In this document: positions 3,004-64,000 of the stretch, in pieces
Position numbering within the stretch: position 1 is the stretch's first letter
How the letters are laid out: each line of letters opens with the position of its first letter
Assembly (NCBI RefSeq): GCF_006345805.1
Contig: NC_043009.1
Span: 60,698,001-60,762,000 of the forward strand
From: Octopus sinensis
Taxonomy: Eukaryota
Direction: 5' to 3'
DNA: 64,000 nt
Translations under genes and position numbers: made by a program
The notes under the pieces: generated by a model
The model's input: only the letters and a program-made list of their open reading frames with translations
Databases searched by the model: none
Told to the model about the DNA's origin: nothing

Positions 3004-3228
3004 CATTATTATTATATAAATATATATATATGATCCGGTTCTTGACTGAAGATTGAAGGCTTTGAATGTCCCGTCTGTGTTTTTTGTGTCGTCTTCTAGA
3101 TGTTTCACGTTCTTGTCCCAGTTTGTATTTTTTTCCATTTACATATGCTATTAAGTTAGACATGGCCTGGGCCAATAATGGCCGAAACCTATCAAAGTAT
3201 CAAAGTATATATATATATATATATATAT

Positions 3229-3537
3229 ATCTATACAATATGTTACATTACTCGGTAGTCAAGATAAAACTCTGAGTTTCAGATGCCGAAGTGGAAATCC
3301 ACAACACCATCTCTTCGGTTATCTGGCTATTTGAAAACGTTATGAAAAATTTTTTCATAACGTTTTCAAATAGCCAGATAACCGAAGAGATGGTGTTGTG
3401 GATTTCCACTTCGGCATCTGAAACTCAGAGTTTTATCTTGACTACCGAGTAATGTAACATATTGTATAGATAAATTTCCTCTATTTACATAATATTGAGG
3501 TCTCTTTCTTTCTTTTGTTATCTTACCGTTTTATCAA
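3229..3537. mobile_element. Fold-back element family A (~120-bp arms plus one-sided tail) with hammerhead-like motif; probable Penelope-like pLTR derivative
   Basis: Near-perfect palindrome 3229-3471 centred at ~3350, with a tail to 3537 and (TA)n on both sides. A second copy lies inverted at 16639-16910. Confidence 0.75.
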
Positions 3538-3554
3538 TATATATATATATATAG

Positions 3555-3960
3555 ATAAAATATTATTCGAGACAAAACCACTATTTTGCAAAACAAACAA
3601 GGAAAGACTTAATTAATACATAAAATTTTAATAAATAGTCAAAAAAACCGCCACTACAATCGTTTCTTGTCTTGATCGACAATCTTCAGGTGGACTTCCA
3701 ATAATTCAGTGTCAAATTTTGACACTGAATTATTGGAAGTCCACCTGAAGATTGTCGATCAAGACAAGAAACGATTGTAGTGGCGGTTTTTTTGACTATT
3801 TATTAAAATTTTATGTATTAATTAAGTCTTTCCTTGTTTGTTTTGCAAAATAGTGGTTTTGTCTCGAATAATATTTTATAATTTTTTACTATAAAATCGA
3901 TTTAATCCTAAATCTGATTTTTTCCCTGTAAATTTGGATTTATTCCCTAATATTTATTAT
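3555..3960. mobile_element. Fold-back element family B (~160-bp arms plus tail) with hammerhead ribozyme
   Basis: Palindrome 3555-3879 centred at ~3717, with a tail to 3960 and (TA)n flanks. Related single-arm copies occur at ~31925-32160 and 54074-54262. Confidence 0.8.
3741..3783 (+). ncRNA. Minimal type-I hammerhead ribozyme (mirror copy on minus strand ~3650-3692)
   Basis: ccac CTGAAGA ttgtc-gatcaa-gacaa GAAA cgattg TA gtgg: stem I, core, stem II, near-palindromic stem III and a GUA cleavage triplet. Confidence 0.85.
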
Positions 3961-5502: not shown

Positions 5503-5536
<34 letters not shown>

Positions 5537-5551
5537 TATTATTATTATTGT

Positions 5552-5708
5552 TGGTGGTGGTATTCCATCCGCCTTCATGTTGTGAGTTCAAATTCCAACT
5601 TTCATTCTTTCAGAGTCAAAAAAATAAGTACCAGTTGAGTACTGGGGGTCGATGTAATTGACTATACCCCTCCCCAAAATTTTAGGCTTTGTGTCTATAG
5701 TAGAAAAA

Positions 5709-5763
<55 letters not shown>

Positions 5764-6110
5764 GTGGTGGTATTCCGTCTGCCTTCATGTTCTGAGTTCA
5801 AATTCCAACTTTCATCCTTTCAGAGTAAATAAAATAAGTACCAGTTGAGTACTGGGGGTCGATGTAATTGACTATACCCCTCCCCAAAATTTTAGGCCTT
5901 GTGTCTATAGTAGAAAAATATTATTATATTATTATTATTATTATTATTATTATTGGTGGTGGTATTCCGTCCGCCTTCATGTTCTGAGTTCAAATTCCAA
6001 CTTTCATCCTTTCAGAGTCAATAAAATAAGTACTAGTTGAGTACTGTGGGTCGATGTAATTGACTATACCTCTCCCCAAAATTTTAGGCCTTGTGTCTAT
6101 AGTAGAAAAA

Positions 6111-6153
<43 letters not shown>

Positions 6154-6310
6154 GGTGGTGGTATTCCGTCCGCCTTTGTGTTCTGAGTTCAAATTCCAAC
6201 TTTCATCCTTTCAGAGTCAATAAAATAAGTACCAGTTGAGTACTGGCGGTCGATGTAATTGACTATACTCCTCCCCCAAATTTTAGGCCTTGTGTCTATA
6301 GTAGAAAAAT
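5552..6310 (+). repeat. Tandem array of 4 truncated SINE bodies separated by (TTA)n
   Basis: The unit GGTGGTATTCC...GAGTTCAAATTCCAACTTTCATCC...ATAGTAGAAAAATA occurs four times. Confidence 0.9.
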
Positions 6311-6376
6311 ATTATTATTATTATTATTATTATTATATTATAATTATTATTATTACCATTATTATTATCATTATTA

Positions 6377-8507: not shown

Positions 8508-9470
8508 ATTCAGTAGTTTTATTTTTATAACATGCTTTCACTTTACTACTGAGCGCAGCTCTGTGTATCTTGGGTATGTGCTGTGGTTTGGTTTGATGCT
8601 CTGATGGTTGCTGTATTGAAAGTGTTCTGCGTAGGATGTGTGCAGTGCCAAGTAGTGCAATTTTCTGTATGTTATGTATAAATTTGTAAGTCCTGGTGTT
8701 TATATTATGTATTTGTCTGAATATTTTTTATCATACCTAATGCACCTACTATGATAGGAATTGTTTCTGTTTTTAGATTCCACATTCGAGTTACCTCTAT
8801 TTCATGGTCTTTGTATTTTGAAAGTTTCTCCATTTCTTTTAGAGACACGTTGTCATCTGCTGGTATTGATACATCAATTAGAAAGCATTTTTTTCTTCAT
8901 GATCTCTGACAACTATATCTGGTCTGTTGGCCTTAATTTCTCTATCTGTGTGTATTGGCATATCCCAGAGTATGGTTGCTTTCTCATTTTCTGTGACCTT
9001 TTCTGGTGTGTGCCTATACCATCTTTTTTCTGTTGTTATTCCATAGTGTTGGTATAGCTTCCAGTGTATGTAGGTCCCAACTCTGTCATGTCTATAAATA
9101 TATTCCTTCTTAGCCAGGACTGGGCAGCCAGAGATAATATGATTTATTGTTTCTTGTCCATCTCCACATATTCTGCAGTAACTTGTTATGTTTCTTTTCA
9201 TTATGTGTTTTTGGTAATTTCTGGTCTTGTGGTCTTGTGCTGCAATTAAAAATCCTTCAATCTCTGCTTTGAGTCCTGAGCTTCTCAACCATTGCTGGGA
9301 TTTTTCTCTTTCTATTTCTTTTGCATTTAGTTTAGCTCAGTATTTGCCATGAAGCCCAGTATTTGCCATGAAGCCCAGTATTTGCCTTTCATTCTTGCCA
9401 TTGTTTTATCATGGTCCATTGCTGCTCTAGTTTTAGTTTGGATTTCATTTGTTTTATAGTTTTTGTTGTT
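8508..9470 (-). mobile_element. R4/Dong-clade retrotransposon 3' fragment, second copy
   Basis: Near-identical to 6606-7390 but extends further 5' (QQWLRSSGLKAE). The 3' end abuts (TAA)n. Confidence 0.9.
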
Positions 9471-14377: not shown

Positions 14378-14454
14378 ACAAGAGTTAAAGAATGGAGTGG
14401 ATACAATCCAGGTTACTTGTGTTTCATAGTGAGTAGAACCTTGGAAATGGTAAA

Positions 14455-15022
14455 TATCGAAGTGAGGTGTATACCACAATCTACTCTTCAGGCCAAGGGT
14501 ATCTTGATTAAATGAAGTTTACTATGATGTTAGGAGGCCATGTTAACATACAGGGAATTCTAATGAAATCCTCCATATGTGAACATGGGTCTCCTAATGA
14601 CAATGCAAACTTCATTTAATCAAGGAATCTTTGGCCTGAAGAATAGCCTGCAGAAAAAACCTCACTTGGATATTTACCACTTCCGAAGTTCCGCTCACTA
14701 TGAAATATGTGTAGCACAGATCTTATCTACTCCATTAACTCTTGGATTTGTGTGTGTATACATATGTATACATACCAGCCACCTGTGTCATCAAAGATTA
14801 GATCAGTCTTATTAACGGTATTAGTGATAAAGAATGTGACATCTGTTGAGTACAGTGTGAGAAATCCTTTATACACAGTATTGATGAGGGTGAAATATTG
14901 GATTTGTTTTTTTATGGCTGAAACGTTTTGTAGCAAATCATTTCATTCAAAAAGTCAATGTATGTATGCCTGTGTACTTGTCTATGTGTGTGTGTGTATG
15001 CATAAATATTTGTGTATGTATG

Positions 15023-15089
<67 letters not shown>

Positions 15090-15246
15090 TTACATATACT
15101 TATATATATATGAACAGCTGGTAATGATGTGTTAAAACAATTGTAGTGACATGTCCCACTATATGATAGCACCTGGTACCCAATATTGAAAGAAGAGCTT
15201 GGAAATCACAGTATAAGTTTTTTTTTCTTATCCAAATTATTTCAGC

Positions 15247-15247
<1 letters not shown>
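14455..15247 (+). repeat. Direct duplication, copy 1 (copy 2 at 17960-19006)
   Basis: AAGTGAGGTGTATACC...CTTATCCAAATTATT occurs twice, with scattered substitutions and different internal microsatellite length. Confidence 0.95.
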
Positions 15248-15280
<33 letters not shown>

Positions 15281-15347
15281 TCATCATCATTTAATGTCCT
15301 TCCATGCTGACATGGGTTGGATGGTTTGACATATACTCACATATATT

Positions 15348-15540
15348 TAATTATAATTAAGGGTACCAAAGAGGTTCCACCATGCCAGAAATAGTAGTCA
15401 AAACTGACTCTGAAACCACTTCATGTATTCATTTATCTTTTCTCCTGTGCTATATGAATACATGATGTAGTTTTAGAATCAGTTTTGACTGCTATTTCTG
15501 GCATGGTAGTACTTCTTTGGTACCCTTAATTATAATTATA
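15348..15540. repeat. Diverged fold-back (~85-bp arms); single-arm relative at ~12740-12825
   Basis: AATTATAATTAAGGGTACCAAAG... pairs with ...CTTTGGTACCCTTAATTATAATT. Confidence 0.8.
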
Positions 15541-15761
15541 TTATTATATCACGTGATCACATGACCGACCAGACCATCAGATGTTGTTACACATCGCTGG
15601 TCACAATGCGTTTGCATTGTTTTAGCCTTCGAATGACGCTACCCCACAATCCTATGACCGCAAGTCCACTGCCCTAACCACTAGGCCATTGCGCCTCCAC
15701 ATATTATTATATATATATGATAATCATTACCTATATGGTTGTTTTCCTTTTACCTTCGTCA

Positions 15762-15836: not shown

Positions 15837-16341
15837 TATATATATATATATATATATACGTGTGTGTGTGTGTGTGTGTGCATATGGGTATATGCATATA
15901 TAGACGTATTTTACTCATATTGCTTATTTTTTATACTTCTTTACAGATTTTTCTGTATTTTGCTTTTAGCCCTGTTTTTTTCTTGTGCATGTGCGTATAC
16001 GGACGTGTGCATGAGCCTTTTTTGTGCGCGTGTGAGTGTGAGCGTGTATGCAGGTATGTATATATTTTATTTGATGAATGTGTAGGTGACCATGTGTGTG
16101 TTTCAAGTGAGGATGGATGAGTATATACTTATAGACGCATGTATGTGGGTGTGCGGATGCACGTGTATGTGTATGGACATGCGTGCTTACGCGAATACTA
16201 TGAACATTTTTACTCCCTTACCTTTACTCCCTCCCCTCACTTAGCGGTCATTCTAATAGCTCTTTGTCTTAATATCGGTCAATCACACTGTAATTTCCCT
16301 TTGTTTAACGGTCATTTACATAGCATTTTTTCCGATGGCCG

Positions 16342-16402
16342 GATAACTGAAGAGATGGCGGCATGGATTTCCACCCAAACATCCAAAACTCGGAGTTTTA
16401 TC
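16342..16402 (+). ncRNA. Decayed hammerhead-like motif, diverged relative of family A
   Basis: gataa CTGAAGA gatg...catc c AAAA ctc g gag TT ttatc. Confidence 0.55.
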
Positions 16403-16571
16403 ATTGCTACCGAATAATTGCCACATATTATATTTACAGATATATATACTTGGTATAATTATATTTTATAATTATATTTATAAAATTATATGTTTTGTTT
16501 TAATTTTTACCTTAATTGGTTTTTACATGATAACTTTGATAAATCCTAGAGATTTTATCCCCTGGTTATAA

Positions 16572-16634
<63 letters not shown>

Positions 16635-16638
16635 TATA

Positions 16639-16910
16639 TTGATAAAACGGTAAGATAACAAAAGAAAGAAAGAGACCTCAATATTATGTAAATAGAGGAA
16701 ATTTATCTATAAAATAATATGTTACATTACTCGATAGTCAAGATAAAACTCTGAGTTTCAGATGCCGAAGTGGAAATCCACAACACCATCTCTTCGGTGT
16801 TAGAAATAGCCAGATAACCGAAGAGATGGTGTTGTGGATTTCCACTTCGGCATCTGAAACTCAGAGTTTTATCTTGACTATCGAGTAATGTAACATATTA
16901 TTGTATAGAT
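16639..16910. mobile_element. Fold-back family A, second copy (tail on left)
   Basis: Reverse-complement match to 3229-3537 with a different centre; (TA)n flanks. Confidence 0.85.
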
Positions 16911-16920
16911 ATATATATAA

Positions 16921-17955
16921 ATAGATGAGTGTATTTTTACCTTGTTAACAATTAACACAGAAAAAATAAATAAATAGTTACCAGGGTAGCAAAAATCTCA
17001 CAAGTAAAGATGTTGTAACTCCTTGTTTATAAAGGTAGAAACTTCGTGTTTACGTTGAATATTTTGAATAATATATGAATAAATAAATGGAGTTTAAAGC
17101 AGGTGTAATCAAATATTTTACTTTCGACACATGTTTTGAAAATTCCACTGATACTATTCAAAAGAATAAATGGTATAAACAATGCAATCTTCTCCTCAGG
17201 AAAGTGTAAAAAGCGAAACTCATCAATAAGACATTTTAGCAAAAAATGATGGATTTGTATAGCGATAGACAGAACGCTATTAATATTGTTTAAAAAAAAC
17301 GTTATATGATATAACGTCATAAGTAGCTAACAGAAAGAGTTGGGATACCAATAGTGAATGTTAAATATAAAGGAAATTAAAGTTTAAATTATATATAATG
17401 ATAGAGACTATTTATATGCACTAAATGTATGTTTTTGTCAATGCTTACATCTGTATGCTCGTTCTATAACCGTGTTTACTAGAGTATTTTTAGAAAAAAT
17501 AATGAAAAATAGCTCAGAATTGCAGAGAAGACAGAATTCCTTGCCTTTGTCATATGGTATCAAAATTGAGAGAATCAACCATTCTAAATGAAATTGTTCA
17601 TTTAGTGCATATAAGTAGTCTCTATCATTATATATAATTTAAACTTTAATTTCCTTTATATTTAACATTCACTATTAATATCCCTACTCGTTCTGTTAGC
17701 TACTTATGACGTTATATCATATAACGTTTTTTTAAACAATATTAATAGCGTTCTGTCTATCGCTATACAAATCCATCATTTTTTGCTAAAATGTCTTATT
17801 GATGAGTTTCGCTTTTTACACTTTCCTGAGGAGAAGATTGCATTGTTTATACCATTTATTCTTTTGAATAGTATCAGTGGAATTTTCAAAACATGTGTCG
17901 AAAGTAAAAATATTTGATTACACCTGCGTTAAACTCCATTTATTTATTCATATAT
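16921..17955. mobile_element. Large fold-back (~350-bp arms, ~170-bp spacer) with hammerhead motif and Penelope-like ORF end
   Basis: Arms ~17080-17428 and ~17599-17955. Hammerhead at 17820-17905: actttc CTGAGGA gaagatt...aattttc AAAA catgtg TC gaaagt. The spacer minus strand reads LVNTVIERAYRCKH*QKHTFSAYK*. Confidence 0.75.
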
Positions 17956-17959
17956 ATAT

Positions 17960-18587
17960 TATCCAAGTGAGGTGTATACCATAAATCTACTCTTCAGGCC
18001 AAGGGTATCTTGATTGAATGAAGTTTACTATGATGTTAGGAGGCCATGTTAACATACAGGGAATTCTAATGAAATCCTCCATGTGTGAACATGGGTCTCC
18101 TAATGACAATGCAAACTTCATTTAATCAAGGAATCTTTGGCCTGAAGAATAGCCTGCAGAAAAAACCTCACTTGGATATTTACCCCTTCCAAAGTTCCGC
18201 TCACACTATGAAATAAGTGTAGCACAGATCTTATCTACTCCATTAACTCTTGGATTTGTGTGTGTATACGTATGTATACATACCAGCCACCTGTGTCATC
18301 AAAGATTAGATCAGTTTTATTAACGGAATTAGTGATAAAGAATGTGACATCTGTTGAGTAGAGCATGAGAAATCCTTTATACACCGTATTGATAAGGGTG
18401 AAATATTGGATTTGTTTTTTTATGGCTGAAACATTTTGTAGCAAATCATTTCATGCAAAAAGTCAATGTATGTATGCCTGTGTACTTGTCTATGTGTGTG
18501 AATATGTGTGCGTGTGTGTGTGCATGTGTGTGTGTATGCAGAATATTGTGTGTATGTATATATGCATATATATATATATGTATATAT

Positions 18588-18641
<54 letters not shown>

Positions 18642-18652
18642 TATATACATAC

Positions 18653-18687
<35 letters not shown>

Positions 18688-18712
18688 GATATATTATATA
18701 TATATTATATAT

Positions 18713-18778
<66 letters not shown>

Positions 18779-18779
18779 T

Positions 18780-18864
<85 letters not shown>

Positions 18865-19006
18865 TTATGAACAGCTGGTAATGATGTGTTAAAACAATTG
18901 TAGTGACATGTCCCACTATATGATAGCACCTGGTACCCAATATTGAAAAGAGGAGCTTGGAAATCACACTATAAGTTTTTTTTTTCTTATCCAAATTATT
19001 TTAGCA
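17960..19006 (+). repeat. Direct duplication, copy 2
   Basis: Matches 14455-15247; the internal (TA)n is expanded to ~370 bp. Confidence 0.95.
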
Positions 19007-19511
19007 CATATCATTCCTGTGGTTTGTGGTTGTCCATTTTATGCCAGCTTCCATTGTAACAGCCAAGAAATTTACAACTTTTCAAGAACAAAAAGTGATT
19101 ATACTGAAGGAGACAGGTGCATTAAATCCAAGCTTAAGGAGGTGATGGCAAGTGACCAAGACCTTTGATGATATACCGTGCTTGAGAAGATTCACGAAGC
19201 CAAGTAAAATCATAGTCATAACGTAACTGGCACCCATGCTGGTGGAACATAAACAGCACCCATTACACTCTTGGAGTGGTTGGCATTAACAAGGGCATCC
19301 AGCCGTAGAAACCATGCCAAATCAGACTGGAACTTGGTGCAGCTCTCAATCTTACCAGTTCCAGTCAAACTGTCTAACCCATGCCAGCATGGCAAGCAGA
19401 TGCTAAAAGATGGTGATGATGATGATAAATCTGTTTGCACTATTAATTAAAGCTAGAAATATGAAAAAACTTTCGAGACAACCCGGTATATTATAATTGT
19501 ATTTATATCTA

Positions 19512-19633
<122 letters not shown>

Positions 19634-20378
19634 ACATACTTATCTACATGGCCGAAACAGCTGTAAGATGTAATCTATACTTATATTTATATTTACTTAT
19701 ATTTATATTCTCTTTTATATATATTCTACTTATTATCAACATTACTCTTTTATGTACACTGATTTGTTCTGCTTTTTATATTTAACCCTACAGCCTCTTA
19801 TGTGGTGGTTTAATAAAGTATGTGATTGAGTATTATCTGGTAGTGATATTTGATTTAGATGTATTTCTTTTCATTTCTTTATTTTCTTATCTTGTATATC
19901 TATATATATATATATATTTTTACACATATACACAAATGTTTATATATATATATAATTATATATATATTATACACATATACACAAATGTTTATACAATGGG
20001 CTTCGTTCAGTTTCTGTCTTCTGTTTTTTTTTAAATATTTGTTTTGAAAACTTTTTTGAAATATGAAATGAGAGTTTGGAGTAAGCACTTCTTACCCTGA
20101 AGTTCTTTTCTTAAAAACCTTCTGGAACAACAACATGGCAAACAGCTGCAACGGGCTCGCATTTTTGGTTTCCTTTCTGGTTCTTGTGATAAATATCATA
20201 AACGACTTAAACTCCAGGCAAAGCAAGTCATGAACTGTGTTGTTATTCAAGTGACACTTTTCGAGTAATACTTTAATAATGACATCAAAAACAATGAGTG
20301 TGTCTAGGTGTGTTCATTCTGCATGTGCCTGTGCAGATGCAACATATACACTATGCACATATGCATACACACACACCA

Positions 20379-20411
<33 letters not shown>

Positions 20412-20967
20412 CATCATGCACAAAGCTTTTAAATGAAAGAGCGTAAGGATTTTCTTCAAACTTTCATTTTGGATTTCAAAAATATTCAAAAGAAAAGCAG
20501 GCTTGGTTTGGTTTACCAGTTGGGGATTGGAAATGAATCGTTCTAAGGACTGGAAATTAGACCCTTTTTGTAATCTCTCTATATATATAAAGCTGAAGTT
20601 GTCTGTGTATGGCAGGTTTGGTAGTCTCGTTAACAGGGACAAAACCCGGATTTAAAACACCGGATGATGATGATGATGATGATGTGCCAAAATATGAAAA
20701 CAATGATACTCTTGGTTGAGCTGGGTAATATCGCAGGCTGATTCAGCTCTTATCTGGATGTGAATGGTTGGTGTTGAGCTTGTTTAAACCAAATGGTCCC
20801 AACCATTTTTTTCAACCTATGGACCCTTTTTCATTCTATTTTACTTAGGTGGACCATCACAGCCAATCCACGTTTAAAAAATCCTATTATGTTTTATAAT
20901 TAAATATTGTTAGTCAAACAATCAAAAACAAACAAGGCACATGCACAAAATTAAAAAATTTTAAAAG

Positions 20968-21067: not shown

Positions 21068-21450
21068 CAATGGGCTTCGTTCAGTTTCTGTCTTCTGTTT
21101 TTTTTTTTTAATATTTGTTTTGAAAACTTTTTTGAAATATGAAATGAGAGTTTGGAGGAAGCACTTCTTACCCTGAAGTTTCTTTTCTTTAAAAACCTTC
21201 TGTGAACAACAACATGTGCAAAACAGCTGCAACGGGCTCGCATTTTTGGTTTCCTTTCTGGTTCTTGTGATAAATATCATAAACGACTTAAACTCCAGGC
21301 AAAGCCAAGTCATGAACTTGTGTTGTTATTCAAGTGACACTTTTCGAGTAATACTTTTAATTAATGACATCAAAAACAATGAGTGTGTCTAGGTGTGTTC
21401 ATTCTGCATGTGCCTGTGCAGATGCATACATATACACTTATGCACATATG

Positions 21451-21492
<42 letters not shown>

Positions 21493-22170
21493 CATCATGC
21501 ACAAAAGCTTTTAAATGAAAGAGCGTAAGGATTTTCTTCAAACTTTCATTTTGGATTTCAAAAATATTCAAAAGAAAAGACAGCTTGGTTTGGTTTACCA
21601 GTTTGGGGATGGAAAATGAATCGTTCTAAGGACTGGATTAGACCTTTTTGTAATCTCTCTATATATAAAGCTGAAGTTGTCTGTGTATGGCGGTTTTGTA
21701 GTCTCGTTAACAGGACAAAACCCGGATTTAAAACACCCGGATGATGATGATGATGATGATGTGCCCAATATGAAAACAAACATGATACTCTTTGGTTGAG
21801 CTGGGGTAATATCGCAGGCTGATTCAGCTCTTATCTGGATGTGAATGGTATTGTTTGTTGAGCTTGTTTAAACAAATGGTTCCCAACCATTTTTTTCACC
21901 TATGGACCCTTTTCATTCCTATTTTACTTAGGTGGACCATCACAGCCAATCCACGTTTAAAAAATCCTATTATGTTTTTATAATTAAATATTGTTAGTCA
22001 AACAATCAAAAACAAACAAGGCACATGCACAAAATTAAAAATTTTAAAAGGTGACAATTTTACCCATTGCACCCTGTATATATATATCACATCTATTTTC
22101 TTTCCTCCACCTCACTCTCTATTTTGTATCCTATCTAAATTAACTATTACTTAACCATCCTCTCACACCA

Positions 22171-23385: not shown

Positions 23386-23650
23386 TGTACGGTGGTGGGA
23401 CGATAGAATGGTTGTATACTGTCAATTTAACGTGACAGTAGGGGATTACACCACCACTGTTTAGCCCTAGGAAGCATCGACGCCTCGTGATGGCTTCGAC
23501 ACACATTTTTTCCTGTGTCCTTAAATAATATATAAGGACACAGGAAAAAATGTGTCGAGCCATCAGGAGGCATCAATGCTTCCTAGTGCTAAACAGCGGT
23601 GGTGTAATCCCCTTCTGTCACATTAAATTGACAGTATACAACCATTCTAT
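23386..23650. repeat. Fold-back (~120-bp arms) ending in (TA)n, no clear ribozyme
   Basis: ATAGAATGGTTGTATACTGTCAATTTAA...CCTGTGTCCTTA pairs with TAAGGACACAGG...TTAAATTGACAGTATACAACCATTCTAT. Confidence 0.85.
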
Positions 23651-32239: not shown

Positions 32240-33685
32240 AGAGCAATAAAGATTCAAGTTAATTTAAAAGATTTACTTGAATATGGTACCTAACTTAGAT
32301 GCACAAAAAAAACTATACTGATTTAACAATACAGAATGTGGGGTGATTATAAGCGAGAAAGAAGCAACAAGAATGGATAGGTTTTTATCCATTCTTGTTG
32401 CTTCTTTCTCGCGTATATATATATATATATATATATATACATACATATAATGTATATATACACACACACATATACACACACACACTCACACACACACACA
32501 CACACACAAACTATGTGTGACGATAAAGTCTTTGTGTTGAAGTCGAGGGTCACCAATTGTAGCGGGAGATATTGATTAAGTAAACAATATTATAATGATG
32601 TCAAAGTCAGCAGTTGCAGCGATTAAAAATGTGTTATTATAATTGCATTCTGTAGGATGTGAAAGGTGAACAATGCATGAACTTTTAAGAAAGTATTTAT
32701 TTACCTGAAAAATACTTTACCTCGATGGGCAGGTTTTAACGTCTGAGAGCATGCGAAAAAAAGTTAGATGTGGTAAAATTTTGTTTTTTATTTTTGCATA
32801 GTTTGGCGTACACAAATTGTTAGTAGTTATCCACAGATAGCGATAGAATGATGTTGTAAGAGAACAGAATTAGAGCTAGAGAGAGTTGTAGGGTGTTGTC
32901 TCAAAGTTGCTGACAGCAAACTTCATTTCTCCCTCTGACCAAGGTTCTAGCAGATCAGCCAGACTTCGTTGTCACCAAAGTGACTACTTGGTTGAGTCGT
33001 CACCGACTGTAACTATCTGATTTTTGCTTGGGGTGTACTTGCTTATATAACTATCCAGAAGGATAAGATATATCATTGAGAACAATAGATTTAGTTGGTG
33101 GTCTTGTTATCTCTATTCTAGCTTTTGGTGAAGTAGAAAAGGCTAGTAAGGGTCAAGTGCTGAAGACATTATTTCGACCTAGCTAAAGGCATCTGGAAAA
33201 TGTAAAATTGCTGTCAGAGAAGAACGATTGTTCTGTTGCAGTGAAGGGAGAGGAGAGAAAAGAGAGTAATTCAGTGAAGGAGAAGTATTGAGAGTAATAG
33301 CCATGACTGAGAGGGAGTGAGAGAGAGTAATAGCAATGAGAGAGAGGAAGTGGCAAAGAGAGTGTTTTGTATCTTCTATTGTCATAATCAACTATAATAA
33401 TACTTTTGTGTATTTCTCCATCACAACATATGAGTGAGAAAGGAAGGGGTGATCCACCGATGGAAGTGGGATTGTGAAAAGTCAGCGGTGAAACAAAAAT
33501 CAAACAGTGTTTCAACTCTGTGTGAGTATGTGTGTATGTATGTAAAAGGAAAAAAAGTGAATGTTGTGTGTGTATGTGTATGTTTGTGTTAAACATATTT
33601 CTATATTTGAGTGAGTGCATATGTGTTTGAGTATGTTTATTTAGAAAGATACATAGAAAATAGAGTTACATACACATGCACATTT

Positions 33686-38825: not shown

Positions 38826-39490
38826 TAATAATAATAATAATAATTGTGTACAGTGCTCAGGTGCACTACAACTCATCATGGCAGTCAACAACTGACGCAG
38901 GCAGTTTGTTCCATGCTTCAGCAACTCTGAGCGTGAAAAAATGTTTCCGAAAGTCATGGGAGCTGTATTGTTTTCTGACTTTGTAGGCATGTCCACGTGA
39001 GTTAGACACATGGAGATCAAAAAGGTGTTCAGTGTTGTTGTTGGTGAGGTGATTGATAACTTTGTGGGTGTTTACCAAGTCCGTCGCCAAACACCGGAGC
39101 TTCAGTGAATCCATGCCCAGGGAAACAAGGCGCTCAGAATATGGTAGGTGTCTGATGGAGGGTATGCGTTTGGTTGCACGTCTCTGGACAGATTCCAGGA
39201 GGTCAATGTTCTGTGCAAGATAGGGGTTCCAAACTGATGATGCGAATTCCAAGTGTGGTCGTACCATAGCTGTATACAGTTTTAAATAGATGGCTGGAGA
39301 GCGGCTAACAAAAGACCTGCTGAGTGATGCCAAGACACCCTCGGCCTTCCTGACAATCTTAGAGATATGCTTTGACCAACGCAAATCACTGCTGACAGTG
39401 ATGCCTAGGTCACGCTCGCAAGAGGATTTCTTGATATCAGTGTTGTGGAGGGAGTATGTGAACGCAGGGTTTTTTCTCCCAAAATGCATG
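38826..39490 (-). mobile_element. CR1/L2-type LINE 3' fragment
   Basis: Translates to HFGRKN, ERDLGITVSSDL, LYTAMVRPHLEFASSVWNP, LESVQRRATK and RKHFFTLRVAEAWNKLP, with a (TTA)n tail. Shorter 3' ends occur at 51000-51360 and 51520-51610. Confidence 0.9.
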
Positions 39491-39835
39491 GGAGTGTGTG
39501 TGTGTGAGCGTGTGCTTGTATATGTATGCACCAGTGTCTCCTTGTGTGTGCATGTCTGTGTGTGTGTGTGTGTGTGTTTTGCAACTATGTACCATGTTTG
39601 TATGTATGGATGGACATCTCTATATTTGTGGACATGCATCTCCATGTGTCCTTGTGTTGCATAAAGTGTGTGTGTATATATGGTCATGTGTTTCAGTCTC
39701 CATTTGCGTATGTGTGCTTGTCTGCTCTTATAACCTATGTACCTATCCGTCTGTATGTTGATTTGTTTATTTTCATATCCATATGCTTACATACGTGTGC
39801 ATATACACATATATACCCCCCACACACACACACAC

Positions 39836-44029: not shown

Positions 44030-44188
44030 CTGTACTAATTGCTAATTAAATTAACTGGAATGCGTTACTTCCGCTTCCAGGTTACACTCAAAGATGTGGA
44101 ATTACTGCTTTATATAAACTGGACACTAACAACCAATTGAAGGAAAGGTAACCAATTCTTTACCTGCACTGCATGATATTCTTCAATC
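44030..44188 (+). promoter_or_regulatory. Splice acceptor and 5'UTR portion of the coding exon
   Basis: Branch-like TACTAAT/GCTAAT at ~44033-44046 and TTACTTCCGCTTCCAG|G at 44080/44081. Confidence 0.7.
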
Positions 44189-45397
44189 ATGGCAAATGCT
44201 TTATGGATTTTTAAATTATTATTGTTGCTCGGACTTTCAGTGCTACTATACACAGTATTTCTATTGGTTCCTAGACCAAGCGTCTCACAAAAACTCCACA
44301 AATTCAAAGAAGACTTCGTTTCTGTATACAAAAGTAGACTTCAACAGAAAATACCAGAAGTGGAAGTATTACCAATTCCAACAGAACATAATGTTTTCTC
44401 TCAGAGTTTTATTGAACCTAAAACAAACCCAGTTAAGGAAAATTTGCCAAAAGAGCATCTTGATCAGTGGTTAAGACGTTTCCATCCACAACCTACAGAC
44501 AAATTTGACCATTCAAAACATAAGCATTTCCAAAAAACACTTATTTCTAATGACAGTCTGTGTCGTAATTCAGCTGTTGATATCTTGGTATATATTCAGA
44601 GTTCTCCAGAGAACCATGCACGACGACAAGCAATCCGTGAGAGTTGGGGAAATGGGGCAGTTTTTCTAGATATATATATGAAACTTGTGTTTGTGGTTGG
44701 TAAATCAACCAATAAGGAAAGCCAACACAAAATAAAAGCAAGCATTACTTACGAAAGTATACAATACAAAGATATTCTTATGCTTGACATTGTGGACACC
44801 TTCCAAAACATAACTTTGAAAAGTATAAATGCTCTTCACTGGATTTATAATATTTGCCCACAGGCAAAATACATTCTCAAGACAGATGATGATATTTATG
44901 TAAACATTTTTCAACTTATCGAGTATTTTATGCCTCAAGTGTGGAATAAAGAAAAAGCAATAATTTGCCATTATAAAACTGAAGGAACAAGTCCAATTGT
45001 TCGGGCCTCAAATAGTAAATGGTATATTCCTAACAACGTCTTTGTTGGAAAGCAATATTATCCTTTTGGTTTCTGCACTGGTTATGCCATTCTCTTCACA
45101 TCAAATCTTCTCCCAGAAATGTACAACATGTCTCTCAGAGTGCCTTACATTGGAATCGACGATGTCTATGCTTTCGGTCTGTTGCTAAAAGACATAAAAA
45201 ATATTACTGTTATCAATGCACAACGCAACTTTACTCTTAACCAAAATGCTGCTCTTTCTGAATATGAAGGTTCAAAACCAATATCACATGTTGTGGCAAG
45301 TGCCTGGGCCCAAAACAGTATGAGTCGCTTCTGGTACGCTACCATCCGCAAACTTTCTAATTGGGGAAAATTACATTGTAAATTGAGCACCAAATAA
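44189..45397 (+). CDS. Beta-1,3-galactosyltransferase-like / GT31 (Galactosyl_T) type II Golgi glycosyltransferase, 402 aa, single coding exon
   Basis: N-terminal TM anchor (LWIFKLLLLLGLSVLLYTVFLLV), stem region, SSPENHARRQAIRESWG, VFVVG, ESIQYKDIL..DIVDTFQNITLK, DxD motif KTDDDIYVN, KWYIP, YPFGFCTGYAI and IDDVYAFGLL. The ORF is intact. Confidence 0.95.
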   Translation: MANALWIFKLLLLLGLSVLLYTVFLLVPRPSVSQKLHKFKEDFVSVYKSRLQQKIPEVEVLPIPTEHNVFSQSFIEPKTNPVKENLPKEHLDQWLRRFHPQPTDKFDHSKHKHFQKTLISNDSLCRNSAVDILVYIQSSPENHARRQAIRESWGNGAVFLDIYMKLVFVVGKSTNKESQHKIKASITYESIQYKDILMLDIVDTFQNITLKSINALHWIYNICPQAKYILKTDDDIYVNIFQLIEYFMPQVWNKEKAIICHYKTEGTSPIVRASNSKWYIPNNVFVGKQYYPFGFCTGYAILFTSNLLPEMYNMSLRVPYIGIDDVYAFGLLLKDIKNITVINAQRNFTLNQNAALSEYEGSKPISHVVASAWAQNSMSRFWYATIRKLSNWGKLHCKLSTK

Positions 45398-45932
45398 AAA
45401 AAAACACAGTAATTGAGTGAGTGTAGTATATGTGTGTGTGTGTATTTGTCATATACAATGTGTTACTTGTTCTTCTTTTTGCTAACTTTTCCACATTCAA
45501 AAAAAAAAAAAAATATATACAGAAAGAGAAAGAAAATATTTTTAGTGAAAACAAAAATCTCTCTTTAATTTTCTTTGTGACACCAGTTTCAAATTTGAGG
45601 CCGTTCTCTAAAGGACTTTAAGGATTCTGGTTATGCTCAGCTCATGAGTATGTTTCTGTAAAGTTCTATACATTTCAAGGATTAAAAAAAAAATTTGAAC
45701 ATTTTAATTTTATATTTTGTTTTTCATTTTTATTTTATTTTTTTCTGCAAAGAGTGCTGGAATTTAAAACTTGTTACCATCATCATCATCATCAATGACA
45801 TTTAATGTCTGTTTTCTATGCTGGCAAAAGTTGGCCGGCTTGACAGGAACTGGCAAGGCCAAGCACTGCACCATTATCTTTAGTCAGTTTTGGCTTGGTT
45901 TCTATGGCTGGATGTCCTTCCTAACACCAGCT

Positions 45933-46415
45933 ACCTATTTCTTTACTACCCACAAGGGGCTAATCACAGAGGAGACAAACAAGGACAGACAAACGCATTA
46001 AGTCGATTATATCGACCCCAATGCATAACTGGTACTTAATTTATCGACCCTGAAAGGATGAAAGGCAAAGTCGACCTCGGCGGAATTTGAACTCAGAACG
46101 TAACAGCAGACGAAATACGGCTACGCATTTCGCCCAGCATGCTAACGTTTCTGCCAGCTTGCTGCCATCCTAACACCAGTGACCTATTTCTTTACTACCC
46201 ACAAGGGGCTAATCACAGAGGGGACAAACAAGGACAGACACACGGATTAAGTCGATTACATCGACCCCAGTGCATAACTGGTACTTAATTTATCGACCCT
46301 GAAAGGATGAAAAGCAAAGTCGACCTCGGCAGAATTTGAACTCAGAACGTAACGGTAGATGAAATACGGCTACGCATTTCGCCTGGCATGCTAACATTTC
46401 TGCCAGCTTGCTGCC
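45933..46415 (-). mobile_element. Tandem pair of tRNA-derived SINEs nested in a (GAT)n-tail SINE
   Basis: Two ~250-bp units, with TCCTAACACCAG repeated at each junction. Confidence 0.8.
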
Positions 46416-47964: not shown

Positions 47965-48164
47965 TATATATATATATATATATAAACCACCAAGTAAGTT
48001 AGGGGTTGTGGATCCAACCCACTAAGGGATAATATTTATCCAATATACTGTTGGTATAATACCCAAATTATTAATACACAAGTGTTTTCAATTGCAATGC
48101 AATAAACTTACTTATTTTATTAAATGGGTGAAGGTAAAGAAATATTTTATCATTAATTTGTATT

Positions 48165-48467
48165 ACAAATAAGAAGATAGAGAAACACATTAGTTGGTTT
48201 ATCAGCTTTTAGGATATTAGAATGTTGACTTATTTATTTATCAAAATGACAACCATAACATATATACATATAGTATATTATTCAATGCATATAAGATAAG
48301 AATACAAGTAGTTATTAAAAAAAACATTAATATAAATTGTTAAAATCATCTAACAATTTATGTTGTTGTATGTTATTAAGGTTGTCGTTTTGTTAAATAA
48401 ATAAGTCAACGTTCTAATCTCCTAAAGCTGATATACCGTCTAATGTGTTTCTCCATTTTCTTATTTG

Positions 48468-48470
<3 letters not shown>
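48165..48470. repeat. Diverged fold-back (~100-bp arms) with left tail to ~47985, in (TA)n
   Basis: TACAAATAAGAA...GTTGACTTATTTATTTA pairs with TAAATAAATAAGTCAAC...TTCTTATTTGTA. Confidence 0.75.
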
Positions 48471-48626: not shown

Positions 48627-50333
48627 ATATATTTATATATATATACATATACATATATACATATACATATATATGTATATATATTATGGTGTGTGTGTGT
48701 GTGTGTGTGTGTATGATTGTGTGTCTGTGTTTGTCCCTCCACCATCACTTGACAACCAGTGTTGGTGTGTTTATGGCCCCCGTAACTTAGTAGTTCGGCA
48801 AAAGAGACAGTAAAATAAGTACCAGGCTTACAAAGAATAAGTCCTGGGGTCGATTTTTCTGACTAAATATGGCACTCCAGCATGGCCTCAGTCAAATGAC
48901 TGAAACAAATAAAAGAATAAAAGAACATATGTATGTATATATATATAATATATGTCTGTGTGTGTGTGGGCAGGGAGTGGGGAAATGTGTGTATGTGTGT
49001 GTATGTGAGTATTTATGTGTGCTCTTGTCTAGACACCAAGTGATGGTTGTAAGTAGTCATCGTTGTCATACAAACATGTCTGGCCATGGGGGAAATTTTG
49101 TTTGGAAACAGACGAAGGTTAGCAGCAGAAAGAGCATCCAGTCATAGAAAATCTGTTTCTATGAGTTCCATGTGACCCCTTGCAAGCATGGAAAACTGGA
49201 TGTTAAATGATGATGATGATGATGAAGTATATACAAAGGTGTATGTCTGTGTGTGTGTGTGTGTGTGTGCTTGCATTGTGTGTAGTGTGTGTGTTTCTAT
49301 ATATATATGTATATCAATATATATTTCTTTATTGCCCACAAGGGGCTAAACATAGAGGGGACAAACAAGGACAGACAAAGGGATTAAGTCGATTATATCG
49401 ACCCAGTGCCAAACTGGTACTTTATTTATCGACCCCGAGAGGATGAAAGGCAAAGTCGACCCCAGCGGAATTTGAACTCAGAACGTAACGACAGACGAAA
49501 TACAGCTAAGCATTTTGCCCGGCGCGCTAATGTTTTTGCCCGGCTCGCCGCCTTTTGTATATCAATATATGCTTGTATGTATATGTATGTGTGATGTGGG
49601 CATGTGTACGTGTGTGTCTATACGCACACATGTAAATGGAGAATGTACCTCATACAGTGTGAAAGTTAAATATAAACAGTCTTGACTTAATCCCGCATTA
49701 CTCGATGTTTTGTAGGCATAAATCTATGCATCTGGTTTTGAAAACCCTTTAAGAATAAAAAGACTAAGTGGAAAGCAGTGGGTTCTGAGTAAAAATAGTT
49801 GGGATTCAGTTCAAGTCACTTGCTGAAGTTGACAGTTCAGCAACAAGGGATTCTCGTTGTTGTTCCTCGTGGCTTAACAGACAGCCTAGCAACACTAACT
49901 TGTCTATCACCTGTAGAAGTTGACAGGTCAAGAACAGTAAGTGAAAATGTATGCACACGGCTATTGTTCTAAGTGGCAAAGTCAACAATTAAGCAGTGTG
50001 AGGTGTATTTGATGTGGGCGGTTGTAATAGTTGTTGGGTGTTAGTAATGAAAAACAATATGAGGCAGTAGTGATAGCCAACAGGAGGGGAATAATCTCAC
50101 TATGGGCAAGTAAAGAAATTAGTGATCAAAAATTTGAAATTAATTAAATAATAATCATCATCATCATCATCATCATCGTTTAACGTCCGCTTTCCATGCT
50201 AGCATGGGTTGGACGGTTCAACTGGGGTCTGGGAAGCCCGAAGGCTGCACCAGGCCAGTCAGATGTGGCAGTGTTTCTACAGCTGGATGCCCTTCCTAAC
50301 TCCAACCACTCCGAGAGTGTAGTGGGTGATTTT

Positions 50334-50790
50334 ATGTGCCACCGACACAGGTGCCAGACGAGGCTGGCAGACGGCCACGCTCGGATGGTGTTTTTTATGT
50401 GCCACCGACACAGGTGCCAGACGAGGCTGGCAGACGGCCACGCTCGGATGGTGTTTTTTATGTGCCACCGACACAGGTGCCAGACGAGGCTGGCAGACGG
50501 CCACGCTCGGATGGTGTTTTTTATGTGCCACCGACACAGGTGCCAGACGAGGCTGGCAGACGGCCACGCTCGGATGGTGTTTTTTATGTGCCAACCGACA
50601 CAGGTGCCAGACGAGGCTGGCAGACGGCCACGCTCGGATGGTGTTTTTTATGTGCCAACCGACACAGGTGCCAGACGAGGCTGGCAGACGGCCACGCTCG
50701 GATGGTGTTTTCTTATGTGTCACCGACACAGGTGCTAGACGAGGCTGGCGGACGGCCACGCTCGGATGGTGTTTGTTACGTGCCCTCAGC
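50334..50790. repeat. 63-bp minisatellite (~7 near-identical units) inside a SINE (50155-50975, minus)
   Basis: Unit ATGTGCCACCGACACAGGTGCCAGACGAGGCTGGCAGACGGCCACGCTCGGATGGTGTTTTTT; 21-aa periodicity in the ORFs. Confidence 0.95.
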
Positions 50791-52075
50791 ACGGAGGCCA
50801 GTCATTGCGGTACTGGCTACGGTCACGTTCGGATGGTTTTCTTATGTGCCACCGGCACTGGTACCACAAGGATACAAATTCCATTGATGTTCATCTATTT
50901 TGATTTGGTTCGATTTGATTTGATACGATTCGATTCTATTCTCACTTGCCTCAACAGGTCTTCACAAGTGTCACAAGAAGGAAGGTATGCACAATAATAA
51001 TGAAATTATTGTATACAGTGCTCAGGTGCACCACAACTTGTCAGAAAGTGCGTATAAAATATATGCAGTTATGTACAAATGTCTGGGAAGTGAGCAGTGT
51101 ATGAGTCAAATACATGCTTGTGTGTGTATGGAGGAGAGGAAATCAGGTGTAGTGTTGGCGAATCTCAGGAAGCATAGAAGTTTTGAAAGATGCAATGCTC
51201 TGACTACTAACAACTGATGCCGGCAGTTTGTTCCATGCTTCAGCAACTCTTAGCATGAAAAAATGTTTCCAAAAGTCATGGGAGCTGTGCTGTTTTCTGA
51301 CTTTGTAAATATGTCCATGGGTGTTAGACAGATGGAGTTTGAAAAGGTGCTCAGAGTTATTGTTTGTAAGATGGTTAATAATTTTTCAACAGCCTCACTA
51401 CAGTTAAGACATTTCTGGTGAGGTTGAATTGCTGTGGTATATATAAGAAAATGGTGAATGTTCCAGAATCTTCTATTCACATTTTGGTACAAAAACCCAG
51501 ATGATTCTTTTGATGTGTACCGGTGTGTATGGAGGGGAGAAAATCAGGTGCAGTGTTGGTGAATCTCAGGAAGCATGGAAGTTTTGAAGGATGCAGTGCT
51601 CCGACAAATAACAGGGTACTTTTTTAATAGCAGCAAAATAACAGATAGGTTTTTGTTGATACTGCCGTTTGTTATGATGTTTACTACTTGCCATGGAGAT
51701 AAAGCTGGCAAAATTGAGTTCTGTGTAAGTGAGGAGGTGCCTTATCAGAAATGCTAAGTGTAGCATTAGGGAAACTGTTTCACCGGTAACAGAATCACCC
51801 GATGAAACCAGAGAAGGGAAGCTCCTGAAGAAGTGAATTACTGTGTTGAAATCCCTGATCGTTAGGTTCGTATAATTTTATGGGATCATCTAGTTTGACA
51901 AATGGCTCTACAGAATATAATTTGTAAGGAGAGGGGCCAGAGAAAATTCAAAGGGATTTCAGCTGTTGAAGAATGTGGTGTCGGTGGAATCTGAGTAGCT
52001 ATAATGTCTTCTTTTCAGTAGTTGTGCTGTCCAGTTTTGGAAGCAATGATATCTATCTATCTATCTATCAGTCTG

Positions 52076-52142
<67 letters not shown>

Positions 52143-52276
52143 GTCTATCTATCCAGGCTCACACTAGGTAAAAAGTTGGAAATTGTTTTGGTGGCCCATA
52201 ATACTCCATGGATCCTAAGCAAGGCATGTGTAAAATTTGAATGAAATTATTTGGGTAGTTCTCAAGTTTTAGTGAT

Positions 52277-52338
<62 letters not shown>

Positions 52339-53259
52339 AGAATGTGGGTGTGTCTGTCTCTTTATCTATGAGTGAGTGTGTGTGTGTGTGTGTGTCGTGT
52401 GCGTCACTAAAACTCGAGAACTACCCAAACGATTTCATTCAAACTTTACACCTGTTTTACTTAAGGATCCATGGGTACCTATGTTTTCTATGGGGCTTTT
52501 TCATGAGCAGCCCTCAAACATCTCCTCCTTATTGAAGATTAAACAGTGTGATTTCTTTTGGGGTTTTTTTCCCCTCTTTTATAACTTTGTTAGTCTTGTT
52601 TACACACAAAACCCTCACAACAACAACACACTCACATACAAACACACACATTCTTTGCTTTGCCCTGTACTGTCCATAATGTTTTTCTTCATGTGGTTTA
52701 ATAAAGAAATCATTATTATTATTATCATCATCATCATCATCATCATCAATGCCAACATTGATTATAATGATTATTATTACATAAACGTAAAATTTAGCCT
52801 TGTGAAAAATTGATTAATTCACTGACGATAAAATCTCAGTGTTGTTGGCTGGATGGTTTTCCACATTTCCATATAAATATATACATTAGCACACGCATGT
52901 GTATAAATGCATTTAATATGCATGTAATATATACATACATAGATGGCGGACATTAAACGATGACTATGATGACATACATAAGCATGTGTGTGTGTGTGAG
53001 TAGGCTGACTGACAACGATTGATTGAATGTTGTTAATTATTGAAATAGACATGGTAATCAATTGTATTAACTGTGATGCTTGGTGCAGCGGTGGGCGGGG
53101 ACTAAAGTGAAGGACAGTTTGTTTCCATTCTTTATTTCTTTGCTCAGTTGTCTATTTCCTTGTATCACAGCCAAATTACATTCATATAGTGTTGTTTGGT
53201 TATGTTGATGTTTTTTCCCTCCTAGATGAAATGCCTTTCCGTAAATGTGCATGTTTTAC

Positions 53260-54058
53260 TGGGCGAAATGCTGAGCGGTATTTCGTCTGCCGTTACGTTC
53301 TGAGTTCAAATTCCACCAAGGTCGACTTTGCCTTTCGTCTTTTCGGGATCGATAAATTAAGTACTAGTTATGCACTGGGGTCGATGTAATCGACTTAATC
53401 CGTTCGTCTGTCCTTGTTTGTCCTCTCTGTGTTTAGCCCCTTGTGGGTAGTAAACAAATAGGTATTTCGTCTACTGTTACGTTCTGAGTTCAAATTCCAC
53501 CAAGGTCGACTTTGCCTTTCATCCTTTCAGGGTCGATAACTTAAGTACCAGTTACACACTGAAGTCGATGTAATCAACTTAATCCCTTTGTCTTTGTTTG
53601 TCCCCTCTGTGTTTAACCCCTTGTGGGTAATAAAGAAACAGTTACGTTCTGAGTTCAAATTCCGCCGAGGTCAACTTTGCCTTTCATCTTCTCAGGATCG
53701 ATAAATTAAGTACCAGTTATGCACTGGGGTCGATGTAATCGACTTAATCCGTTTGTCTGTCCTTGTTTGTCCCCTCTATGTTTAGCCCCTTGTGGGTAAT
53801 AAAGAAGCAGTTACATTCTGAGTTCAAATTCCACCGAGGTCAACTTTGCCTTTCATCCTTTCAGGATCGATAAATTAAGTACCAGTTATGCACTGGGATC
53901 GATGTAATCGACTTAATCCATTCGTCTGGCCTTGTTTGTCCCCTCTATGTTTAGCCCCTTGTGGGTAATAAAGAAACAGTTACGTTCTGAGTTCAAATTC
54001 CACCGAGGTCGACTTGGCCTTTCATCTTTTCGGAGTCAATAAATTAAGTACCAGTTAT
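53260..54058 (+). repeat. Tandem array of ~5 SINE bodies (~170-185-bp unit)
   Basis: GTTACGTTCTGAGTTCAAATTCC...CCCCTTGTGGGTAATAAAGAAACA is repeated head-to-tail. Confidence 0.9.
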
Positions 54059-54073
54059 GGAAGATATTTAAAT

Positions 54074-54262
54074 CACCTGAAGAATGACTGTAACCCGAAA
54101 TTTTAAGAATTGGACAGCCATGAAACGATCGTAGTGTTATACTAATTATCTTTTTTTAATAATTTTGATATATATTTAAAATAATATAAATTAATTATCT
54201 TATGTATTGGCTTGAGTTTTTCATTGTATGATTTGCCTAATAGTGGTTTTGTCTCTAATTTA
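54074..54262 (+). mobile_element. Family B relative with long-stem-II hammerhead (54074-54136)
   Basis: cac CTGAAGA atgactgt...acagccat GAAA cgatcg TA gtg, with downstream TAGTGGTTTTGTCTC and then (TA)n. Confidence 0.75.
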
Positions 54263-63783: not shown

Positions 63784-64000
63784 TTATTCACTTGACCGGT
63801 TTCACTTTTTGAGAAAAAGATTGTCAAAAGTAACATGTAAAAGCTTTGTCGTATTAGGTACTGGTTGTCACAAAATATTACAATACATATATACATTCTT
63901 TGATAATAATAAGAACATGTTCTTATTATAACACAACAAAGCTTTTACATGTTACTTTTGACAATCTTTTTCTAAAAAGGTGAAACCGCTCAAGTGAATA
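63784..64000. repeat. Fold-back running off window end with hammerhead 3' half
   Basis: TATTCACTTGACCGGTTTCAC...AAAAGCTTTGT pairs with ACAAAGCTTTT...GTGAAACCGCTCAAGTGAATA. The outward strand reads GAAA ccgg TC. Confidence 0.7.

Follow-up and report, generated by a model that had tools for sequence, protein, structure and literature searches.

The fold-back studied here lies in a 64,000-nucleotide stretch of Octopus sinensis DNA (the window) and consists of two 5′-truncated 3′ ends of one high-copy Penelope-like retroelement, placed head to head. In itself the window copy is unremarkable, a dead Penelope stub whose ORF contains a premature stop and whose predicted ribozyme is crippled. The fold-back most likely arose from one insertion event, with the two strands of the cut, TA-rich target each priming reverse transcription, from two different fixed start sites on the RNA of the element. 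PMC8557442 lists two open questions here: the way in which Penelope-like elements form inverted ends, and the cause of their targeting to microsatellites. Two results go beyond the literature that we found: a counted rule by which a long arm is paired with a short one, including pairs whose arms do not overlap, and a linker-less Hydra-type lineage that still lands in (TA)n.

A first-pass annotation of this DNA had described a large fold-back at this position, and the inverted pair is real: segments 17067-17427 and 17599-17960 match at 354 of 363 positions (97.5% identity, E = 1e-174) and include a perfect 183-bp block (17116-17298 and 17727-17909). Beyond its paired part the left arm has a further ~155 nt, which the first-pass annotation had missed; this tail leads into a TA run at about position 16917 and has no counterpart on the right. 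In full-length copies the same sequence fills the interval from the 5′ pLTR to ~50 nt upstream of the ATG. The insertion was received by the TA end of a neighboring stub. The locus comprises the following features.

16620-16914, L arm 16620-16798 on the minus strand and S arm 16804-16914 on the plus strand: neighboring stub, also head to head, from a second family of canonical Hydra type
16904-16916: short TA run, from the L end to the end of the neighboring element
16917-17072, minus strand: tail of ~155 nt, terminating at the long (L) 3′ end
17073-17427, minus strand: left arm, comprising the ORF end and the 3′ pLTR from a long (tail-bearing) copy
17120-17206, minus strand: type I hammerhead motif with stem I, CUGAGGA, a 55-nt stem II, G12A at 17137, and a palindromic minimal stem III
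17408-17602, minus strand: 5′-truncated last 64 codons plus stop of the RT-endonuclease ORF (endonuclease C terminus), 96% identical to residues 712-765 of the full-length product P0017
17441-17449, minus strand: CKH, the Hydra-type terminal CxH motif
17522-17533, minus strand: CLLC, the Hydra-type CxxC motif preceding a conserved E
17428-17598: unpaired spacer, ORF sequence present in the left copy only
17599-17602: head-to-head junction, 4-nt microhomology CATT
17599-17953, plus strand: right arm, a second 5′-truncated copy, inverted, terminating at the short (S) 3′ end
17819-17905, plus strand: matching hammerhead of the right arm, with G12A at 17888
17932-17953, plus strand, and its mirror 17073-17094, minus strand: motif preceding the S end, conserved in sister families

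The minus-strand reading frame that the first-pass annotation had quoted for the spacer is an exact match and continues into the left arm. Frame 17602-17408 reads NEQFHLEWLILSILIPYDKGKEFCLLCNSELFFIIFSKNTLVNTVIERAYRCKH*QKHTFSAYK*, that is, 54 codons, a stop, and then QKHTFSAYK*, with the last codons (HTFSAYK*) already within the arm. The premature stop (17438-17440) stems from a TGG>TGA change at 17438 that is private to the window copy, all 34 of 34 other segments having G there. Against a C-terminal profile built from 41 database homologs, the 54-residue spacer peptide scored 39.9 bits (E = 1e-13). The spacer had been read as the C terminus of a Neptune-type Penelope protein. That it is a Penelope-like ORF end is borne out; the assignment to Neptune is not, since the pattern C-x2-C..E..N..C-x-H is the Hydra signature.

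The parent element was recovered by querying the 2.72-Gb assembly with the left part of the fold-back, which returned 2856 candidate copies, the best 40 of them 95 to 100% identical. Longer genomic copies, which the first-pass annotation had proposed to look for, extend upstream of the window copy's turning point into a GIY-YIG domain and a telomerase-like RT. Among 16 longer loci, L037 and L038 carry an open frame of 778 codons from stop to stop, or 775 residues from the ATG (P0017). The parent unit is ~2.9 kb (~2.87 kb) and is composed of a pLTR, the tail, the 775-residue RT plus GIY-YIG ORF, and a second pLTR; direct pLTR repeats ~2180 bp apart flank full ORFs at L037, L038, L039, L043, L050, L051, and L012/L022. 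Because the direct and inverted repeats of L038 are 99.5 to 99.8% identical, we take the family to have been active recently. P0017 contains the RT motifs FDISNFY, PMGSSDS, and YRDD; its structure model has a pLDDT of 81.7, and its top 8 fold matches are telomerase RTs (TERTs). The endonuclease reads SIYQC..FYIG, and its residues Y658, Y671, G673, R682, H686, E741, and N754 are invariant in an alignment of 15 sequences. A single ORF with a telomerase-related RT plus a GIY-YIG domain at its C terminus, pLTRs from a partial tandem, an inverted 5′-truncated copy, an optional tail, and a hammerhead motif within the pLTR are the features of EN+ Penelope elements. The longer copies confirm that the arms are the 3′ pLTR of a Penelope-like element, as had been proposed, and the Penelope origin of the fold-back is confirmed.

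Pfam gave no RT or GIY-YIG match for the ORF products P0001, P0002, P0017, and P0018, so family libraries fail to identify this element. A likely annotation trap is corrected in this way: Pfam and Rfam overlook these elements, and one sister-family fragment is entered in the database under the name "myb-like protein." The named protein relatives come from Octopus and Argonauta. Contigs of four sequencing runs contain the family allele together with the continuation of the ORF, and none of them spans the locus. Sister families (L044, L045-L047, and L049) have ORFs of ~900 residues, the extra length coming from Asn/Ser-rich inserts that separate RT from endonuclease and recall the N-rich inserts of rotifer Penelopes described in PMC3846280. 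We also considered a non-LTR retrozyme. According to 10.64898/2026.07.22.740005, such retrozymes are noncoding hammerhead monomers in tandem arrays, without an ORF of their own; this identity was ruled out, the copies here being variably 5′-truncated ends of a coding element.

Published descriptions of the Hydra clade (PMC8557442, Craig et al. 2021) list RWK and DKT motifs, the absence of CCHH, a linker of the form CxCX5C, CxxC and CxH at the C terminus, a hammerhead, and insertion into (TA)n, and the three Neptune rows in the text of Fig. S7 of the same source are without the terminal CxxC and CxH motifs. In P0017, the terminal residues C735, C738, E741, N754, C763, and H765 are invariant in the alignment, and DKT is present (VQSDKTG). 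At the N terminus, RIRWL stands where RWK aligns, so that RW is kept and K replaced; homologs vary at this point (RWR, RWH, and RWQ). CCHH is absent from the P0017 endonuclease, where GIY and YIG are not separated by a pair of Cys residues and the SKLIW helix lacks a second His, and the Neptune CX2-5CXXC linker is likewise absent. Neptune elements share with the family an RT with a C-terminal GIY-YIG, microsatellite targeting, and pLTRs; unlike it, they have the CX2-5CXXC linker and CCHH and are without terminal CxxC/CxH. A Neptune-type ORF of this genome, L172, has a CX4CXXC linker and CCHH, scored -0.1 bits on the Hydra C-terminal profile, and did not match the spacer (best BLASTP E = 3.5). 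A quick IQ-TREE analysis, with SH-aLRT as the only branch support, comprised 40 rows (34 database proteins out of 41 that were eligible, five ORFs from the octopus genome, and a Neptune row, which formed a very long branch); the named Hydra references stood outside it and were compared by eye with the text of Fig. S7. Neptune identity was rejected on the terminal CxxC..E..N..CxH pattern, the DKT motif, and the absence of spacer similarity in L172; the conserved RW and the quick tree tentatively agree with a Hydra-type placement. We label the family Hydra type rather than Neptune because of its terminal motifs, the profile score, and the mismatch to L172.

As described in PMC8557442, the Hydra clade, which includes Hydra-1_Obim of Octopus bimaculoides, resembles the family in its single ORF, unit of <3 kb, DKT, RW, and lack of CCHH, and also in its C-terminal CxxC/CxH around E and N, pLTR hammerhead, (TA)n insertion, inverted 5′-truncated copy, and one-sided tail. 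It differs in having RWK where the family has RWL, a tail of 30 to 40 nt where ours is ~160 nt, and a hammerhead stem II of ~12 to 25 nt in place of 53 to 55 nt. The window family is distinct from Hydra-1_oBim because the hammerhead sequences differ (File S2); by eye, the neighboring family at 16620-16914 looks closer to Hydra-1_Obim.

The CxCX5C linker zinc finger is absent from P0017 and from the ORFs of three sister families, P0018, P0019, and L049 (~60% identical). Among the 38 further long homologs with the Hydra C terminus, 34 have this linker by pattern, and the remaining 4 have, by eye, a wider-spaced CxC..C. At the linker position, P0017 has instead an Asn/Ser-rich stretch, predicted to be disordered, and a new short motif. 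In the tree, the four linker-less ORFs group together (SH-aLRT 100) and are nested with the linker-bearing P0020, P0023, and P0028 (99). Linker loss looks derived because the linker-less ORFs form one clade inside a linker-bearing group. Judged from these sequences, the octopus family is best filed as a putatively derived, linker-less offshoot of Hydra and not as a canonical member, the CxCX5C criterion failing. Our searches of the freely accessible literature for a linker-less Hydra lineage and for octopus hammerheads returned only the papers cited here; the family may be on record in Repbase reports, subscription papers, or preprint supplements.

Both arms carry the hammerhead with a long stem II that the first-pass annotation had noted. 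Stem II measures 55 nt, cleavage on the left arm is predicted after 17126, and both arms have C-AAAA-C in place of C-GAAA-C (at 17137 and 17888). G12A slows hammerheads 500-fold to a million-fold, as reported in PMC2553840, so "likely inactivating," as the change had been called, is a fair description. The putatively dead ribozyme allele is rare and not a trait of the family: exact AAAA copies number 11 genome-wide, this locus accounting for two, versus 626 with GAAA. The change sits at a CpG and is found on one arm only in two other fold-backs. An Rfam scan of the window returned no match at the gathering score. In an alignment of 8 sequences from five related families, the hammerhead stems were paired in 92.5% of cells, and 7 of 20 pairs (6 in stem II) had changed on both sides. 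None of 500 shuffles reached the covariation score, and slid controls gave 37 to 57%; the slid controls carry more weight than the shuffles because the sequences are related and the structure was chosen by the analyst. Free-energy folds of three hammerhead regions yielded weak z-scores (-1.2 to -2.0), which give no support when taken alone. Known pLTR hammerheads are alike in their pLTR location, in a long helix II, and in a short palindromic helix III that suggests dimeric activity; helix II is far longer here (a 12-bp base plus an apical hairpin, 53 to 55 nt). A subfamily with a CCGA (U4C) hammerhead core matches the canonical form in abundance (442 versus 360 exact copies genome-wide) and includes the intact L037/L038 copies and also L041 and L043; the neighboring family is also CCGA (16787-16797 and 16818-16828). 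U4C is a known natural variant with reduced activity in vitro (PMC3088659).

To examine the 3′ ends of the family, we took the first 100 listed of the 626 sites that match the intact 3′ core of the hammerhead exactly, together with earlier loci, and mapped segments of at least 45 nt and at least 85% identity on a single full-length copy of natural origin; one locus, L148, contributed none. This sample yielded 144 segments in 86 clusters. Two fixed ends account for most of the 144 segment ends: 68 are S and 59 are L, with 14 broken, 2 at locus edges, and 1 continuing into the ORF. S ends fall at one single position in 54 of 68 cases. S lies ~50 nt past the predicted ribozyme cut, L lies ~160 nt beyond S, and the tail between them corresponds to what full-length copies have ahead of the ORF. 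The ~15-nt motif before the S end (17073-17094 in the window) is conserved in alignment across families with otherwise diverged 3′ regions and is a candidate RT start signal.

Outward-facing arms were present in 48 of the 86 clusters (38 S+L, 2 S+S, 1 L+L, and 7 with a broken end), and 36 clusters were single armed. Hence 38 of the 41 typed head-to-head pairs combine a short with a long arm. S+S pairs made up 2 of 40 versus an expected one third (P = 2e-5). Because the sampling pattern sits upstream of S, short L+L pairs may have been missed, whereas S+S pairs would all have been captured. In 18 of the 38 S+L pairs, the L arm lies wholly in the tail, and the two arms have no common sequence. 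Junctions (n = 50) showed an overlap of at least 2 nt in 26 cases, a blunt or 1-nt join in 11, and inserted bases in 13. The window copy fits the S+L rule, with the L arm on the left, the S arm on the right, and the 4-nt CATT overlap between them. The second, linker-bearing Hydra-type family, which has an 80-nt tail, behaved in the same way: among 15 L-ended loci, 7 of 7 inverted partners were S. Two further ideas about the arms were rejected. A GG/AA dinucleotide is not supported as a marker of long versus short arms (L, 20 AA and 2 GG; S, 12 AA and 7 GG), and the long arm does not appear to be blocked by the primer at the short site, arm lengths being alike (medians of 174 versus 172; P = 0.92). 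A one-sided tail is stated qualitatively in PMC8557442 and PMC3846280. Our search of the freely accessible literature found no count of long-plus-short pairing and no link from it to the formation of inverted pairs. The long tail of this family lets each arm be typed, which brings out the near-fixed L+S pairing and the many pairs that are impossible as mirror copies.

The S+L pairs without shared sequence favor two priming events over mirror copying. Under the preferred reading, the element's own endonuclease would nick both target strands; one 3′-OH would start at L and copy ~690 nt, the other would start at S and copy ~355 nt, and the two unfinished cDNAs would be joined head to head via microhomology. 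Such a scheme resembles LINE-1 twin priming, in which two target-strand primers on the element RNA give an inverted 5′ part with a microhomology join. The second LINE-1 primer lands at variable internal sites; here, in contrast, a fixed second site would be used, and the arms can overlap. A biochemical precedent exists in a different clade: the Poseidon protein of Anolis (Poseidon_Ac, PAc) cleaves the two strands of the target and extends each, and its RT begins at either of two internal positions on the RNA, which delimit the tail (PMC11167929, Frangieh et al. 2024). PAc is alike in its two fixed, tail-bounding start sites, its AT-rich targets, and its use of both strands, and its hammerhead was unnecessary for insertion in vitro; it is unlike our family in that its start sites lie inside the ORF, 30 to 40 nt apart, rather than before the ATG and ~160 nt apart. 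In vitro, the top and bottom strands did not differ in start site, so the S+L coupling is not explained by that work, which does not treat inverted pairs. The S+L rule connects the in vitro result of two start sites with genomic inverted structures.

Some observations weigh against double priming. Three pairs break the S+L rule, the 36 single-armed clusters fall outside it, and junctions with inserted bases (13 of 50) or with a blunt or 1-nt join (11 of 50) do not show the expected microhomology. The arms in the window overlap by ~355 nt, which calls for displacement of a strand, for a pair of pLTR copies within a single RNA, or for a second RNA. Nor is the mix of differences at this locus predicted by twin priming alone: the window arms have three rare changes in common (17222, 17207, and 17137), all in the 183-bp perfect block, and differ outside it by 6 substitutions and 2 indels of one base each. 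A self-primed fold-back would account for the overlap of the arms as well as for the 4-nt microhomology and the three common changes; in such a process, a truncated cDNA or antisense template folds on microhomology and copies itself, an endonuclease then resolving the hairpin at staggered S and L positions before or during integration. Self-priming on an antisense template is proposed in PMC3846280, and the tail is attributed to endonuclease-mediated resolution in PMC8557442. We nevertheless consider this route unlikely, since mirror copying cannot yield the 18 of 38 S+L pairs whose arms have no common sequence and since the window arms differ in allele at a segregating dinucleotide (17348-17349); the first of these points counts against it as the general route and less so at this one locus. 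The common changes could also date from a later, DNA-level inversion, in which an aged single copy with the three changes broke and fold-back repair synthesis duplicated its distal part. In keeping with this, the T>A change at 17207 is found genome-wide in these two arms only, two of the three common changes are CpG transitions typical of DNA aging, and sharing exceeds the family norm (3 in ~357 columns versus 5 shared rare changes in the 3897 columns of 25 other pairs, which had 98 differences). The right flank, moreover, starts abruptly in a locally duplicated segment (17960 on; paralog 14455 on). The right arm ends exactly at the family S end and is then followed by TA, however, like dozens of loci and unlike the outcome of random repair. 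Later arm-to-arm gene conversion and an aged one-off donor, absent from the assembly, both fit the common changes as well; a genome-wide search for a donor copy with the private alleles of the window found none. We regard a later inversion as quite improbable. The empty target site was sought via the local duplication (14455-15255 and 17960-19014), which has no matching left flank. In the head-to-head pair at L006, 7 rare changes are shared in 512 columns, and the arms have different alleles at the same segregating dinucleotide.

How double priming reaches TA-rich targets bears on the missing linker, a feature tied to microsatellite targeting in PMC8557442. Of 127 ends, 98 are followed by at least 5 TA within 33 nt, versus 4.7 to 5.9% at random positions. 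With the linker lost, TA targeting would depend on another feature, and it may rest on the terminal CxxC/CxH module, on a preference of the endonuclease, or on pairing of an AU-rich RNA start site with the target. These considerations would be moot if the linker-less family were mobilized in trans by a borrowed, linker-bearing Hydra endonuclease, in which case its TA targeting would be uninformative about its own protein. A linker-bearing Hydra-type family in this genome does use TA ends and the same S+L rule, but the full ORFs of the linker-less family are intact and young, their endonuclease and CxxC/CxH residues are invariant across linker-less families that are only ~60% identical, and the pLTRs of linker-less and linker-bearing families are unrelated in sequence; we give mobilization in trans very little probability. 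Returning to priming by the element's own machinery, it is possible, and we hold this tentatively, that the inverted "pLTR" reflects obligately asymmetric double priming, with each half of the insertion complex at a different start site, and that linker-free TA targeting works through CxxC/CxH, the nuclease, or RNA-DNA pairing. The family offers a natural test of targeting, the proposed linker being lost and (TA)n insertion kept, and its intact ORFs and widely spaced start sites make both asymmetric priming and linker-free targeting directly testable.

The broader proposal of the first-pass annotation, that the fold-backs of the window derive from Penelope 3′ pLTRs, stands in part. It holds also for the palindromes at 16620-16914 and 3225-3557, both made by the second, linker-bearing Hydra-type family. 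A loose hammerhead-core scan matched 4 of 10 stretches and found no core in the palindromes at 15345-15541, 23403-23650, 32348-32417, 48164-48469, 52206-52474, and 63785-64000. At 16282-18050, at least four stubs with hammerheads follow one another, linked through TA-rich ends: an older one (16282-16577, 76% identical to the neighboring family), 16620-16914, the fold-back described here, and a fragment from 17960 that is related to the palindrome at 14379-14744. A near-perfect palindrome of 325 bp (3555-3879, 99.7%) has a compact hammerhead-like core on both strands and abuts the stub at 3225-3557. Local segmental duplications, 88 to 96% identical, pair 14455-15255 with 17960-19014 and 19994-20497 with 21068-21579; the copy at 17960-19014 begins exactly at the right end of the fold-back. 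Elsewhere in the window, a single open frame of 406 codons (44177-45397, plus strand) matches Galactosyl_T (PF01762, E = 4e-40) and is likely a host beta-1,3-galactosyltransferase exon. A dispersed SINE-like repeat of ~230 bp, arrayed in tandem, and a minisatellite with a 63-bp unit occupy 5517-6352, 45916-46413, 53229-54092, and 50267-50836, and LINE-type RT fragments were recognized by eye on the minus strand at 8878-9336 and 38866-39786.
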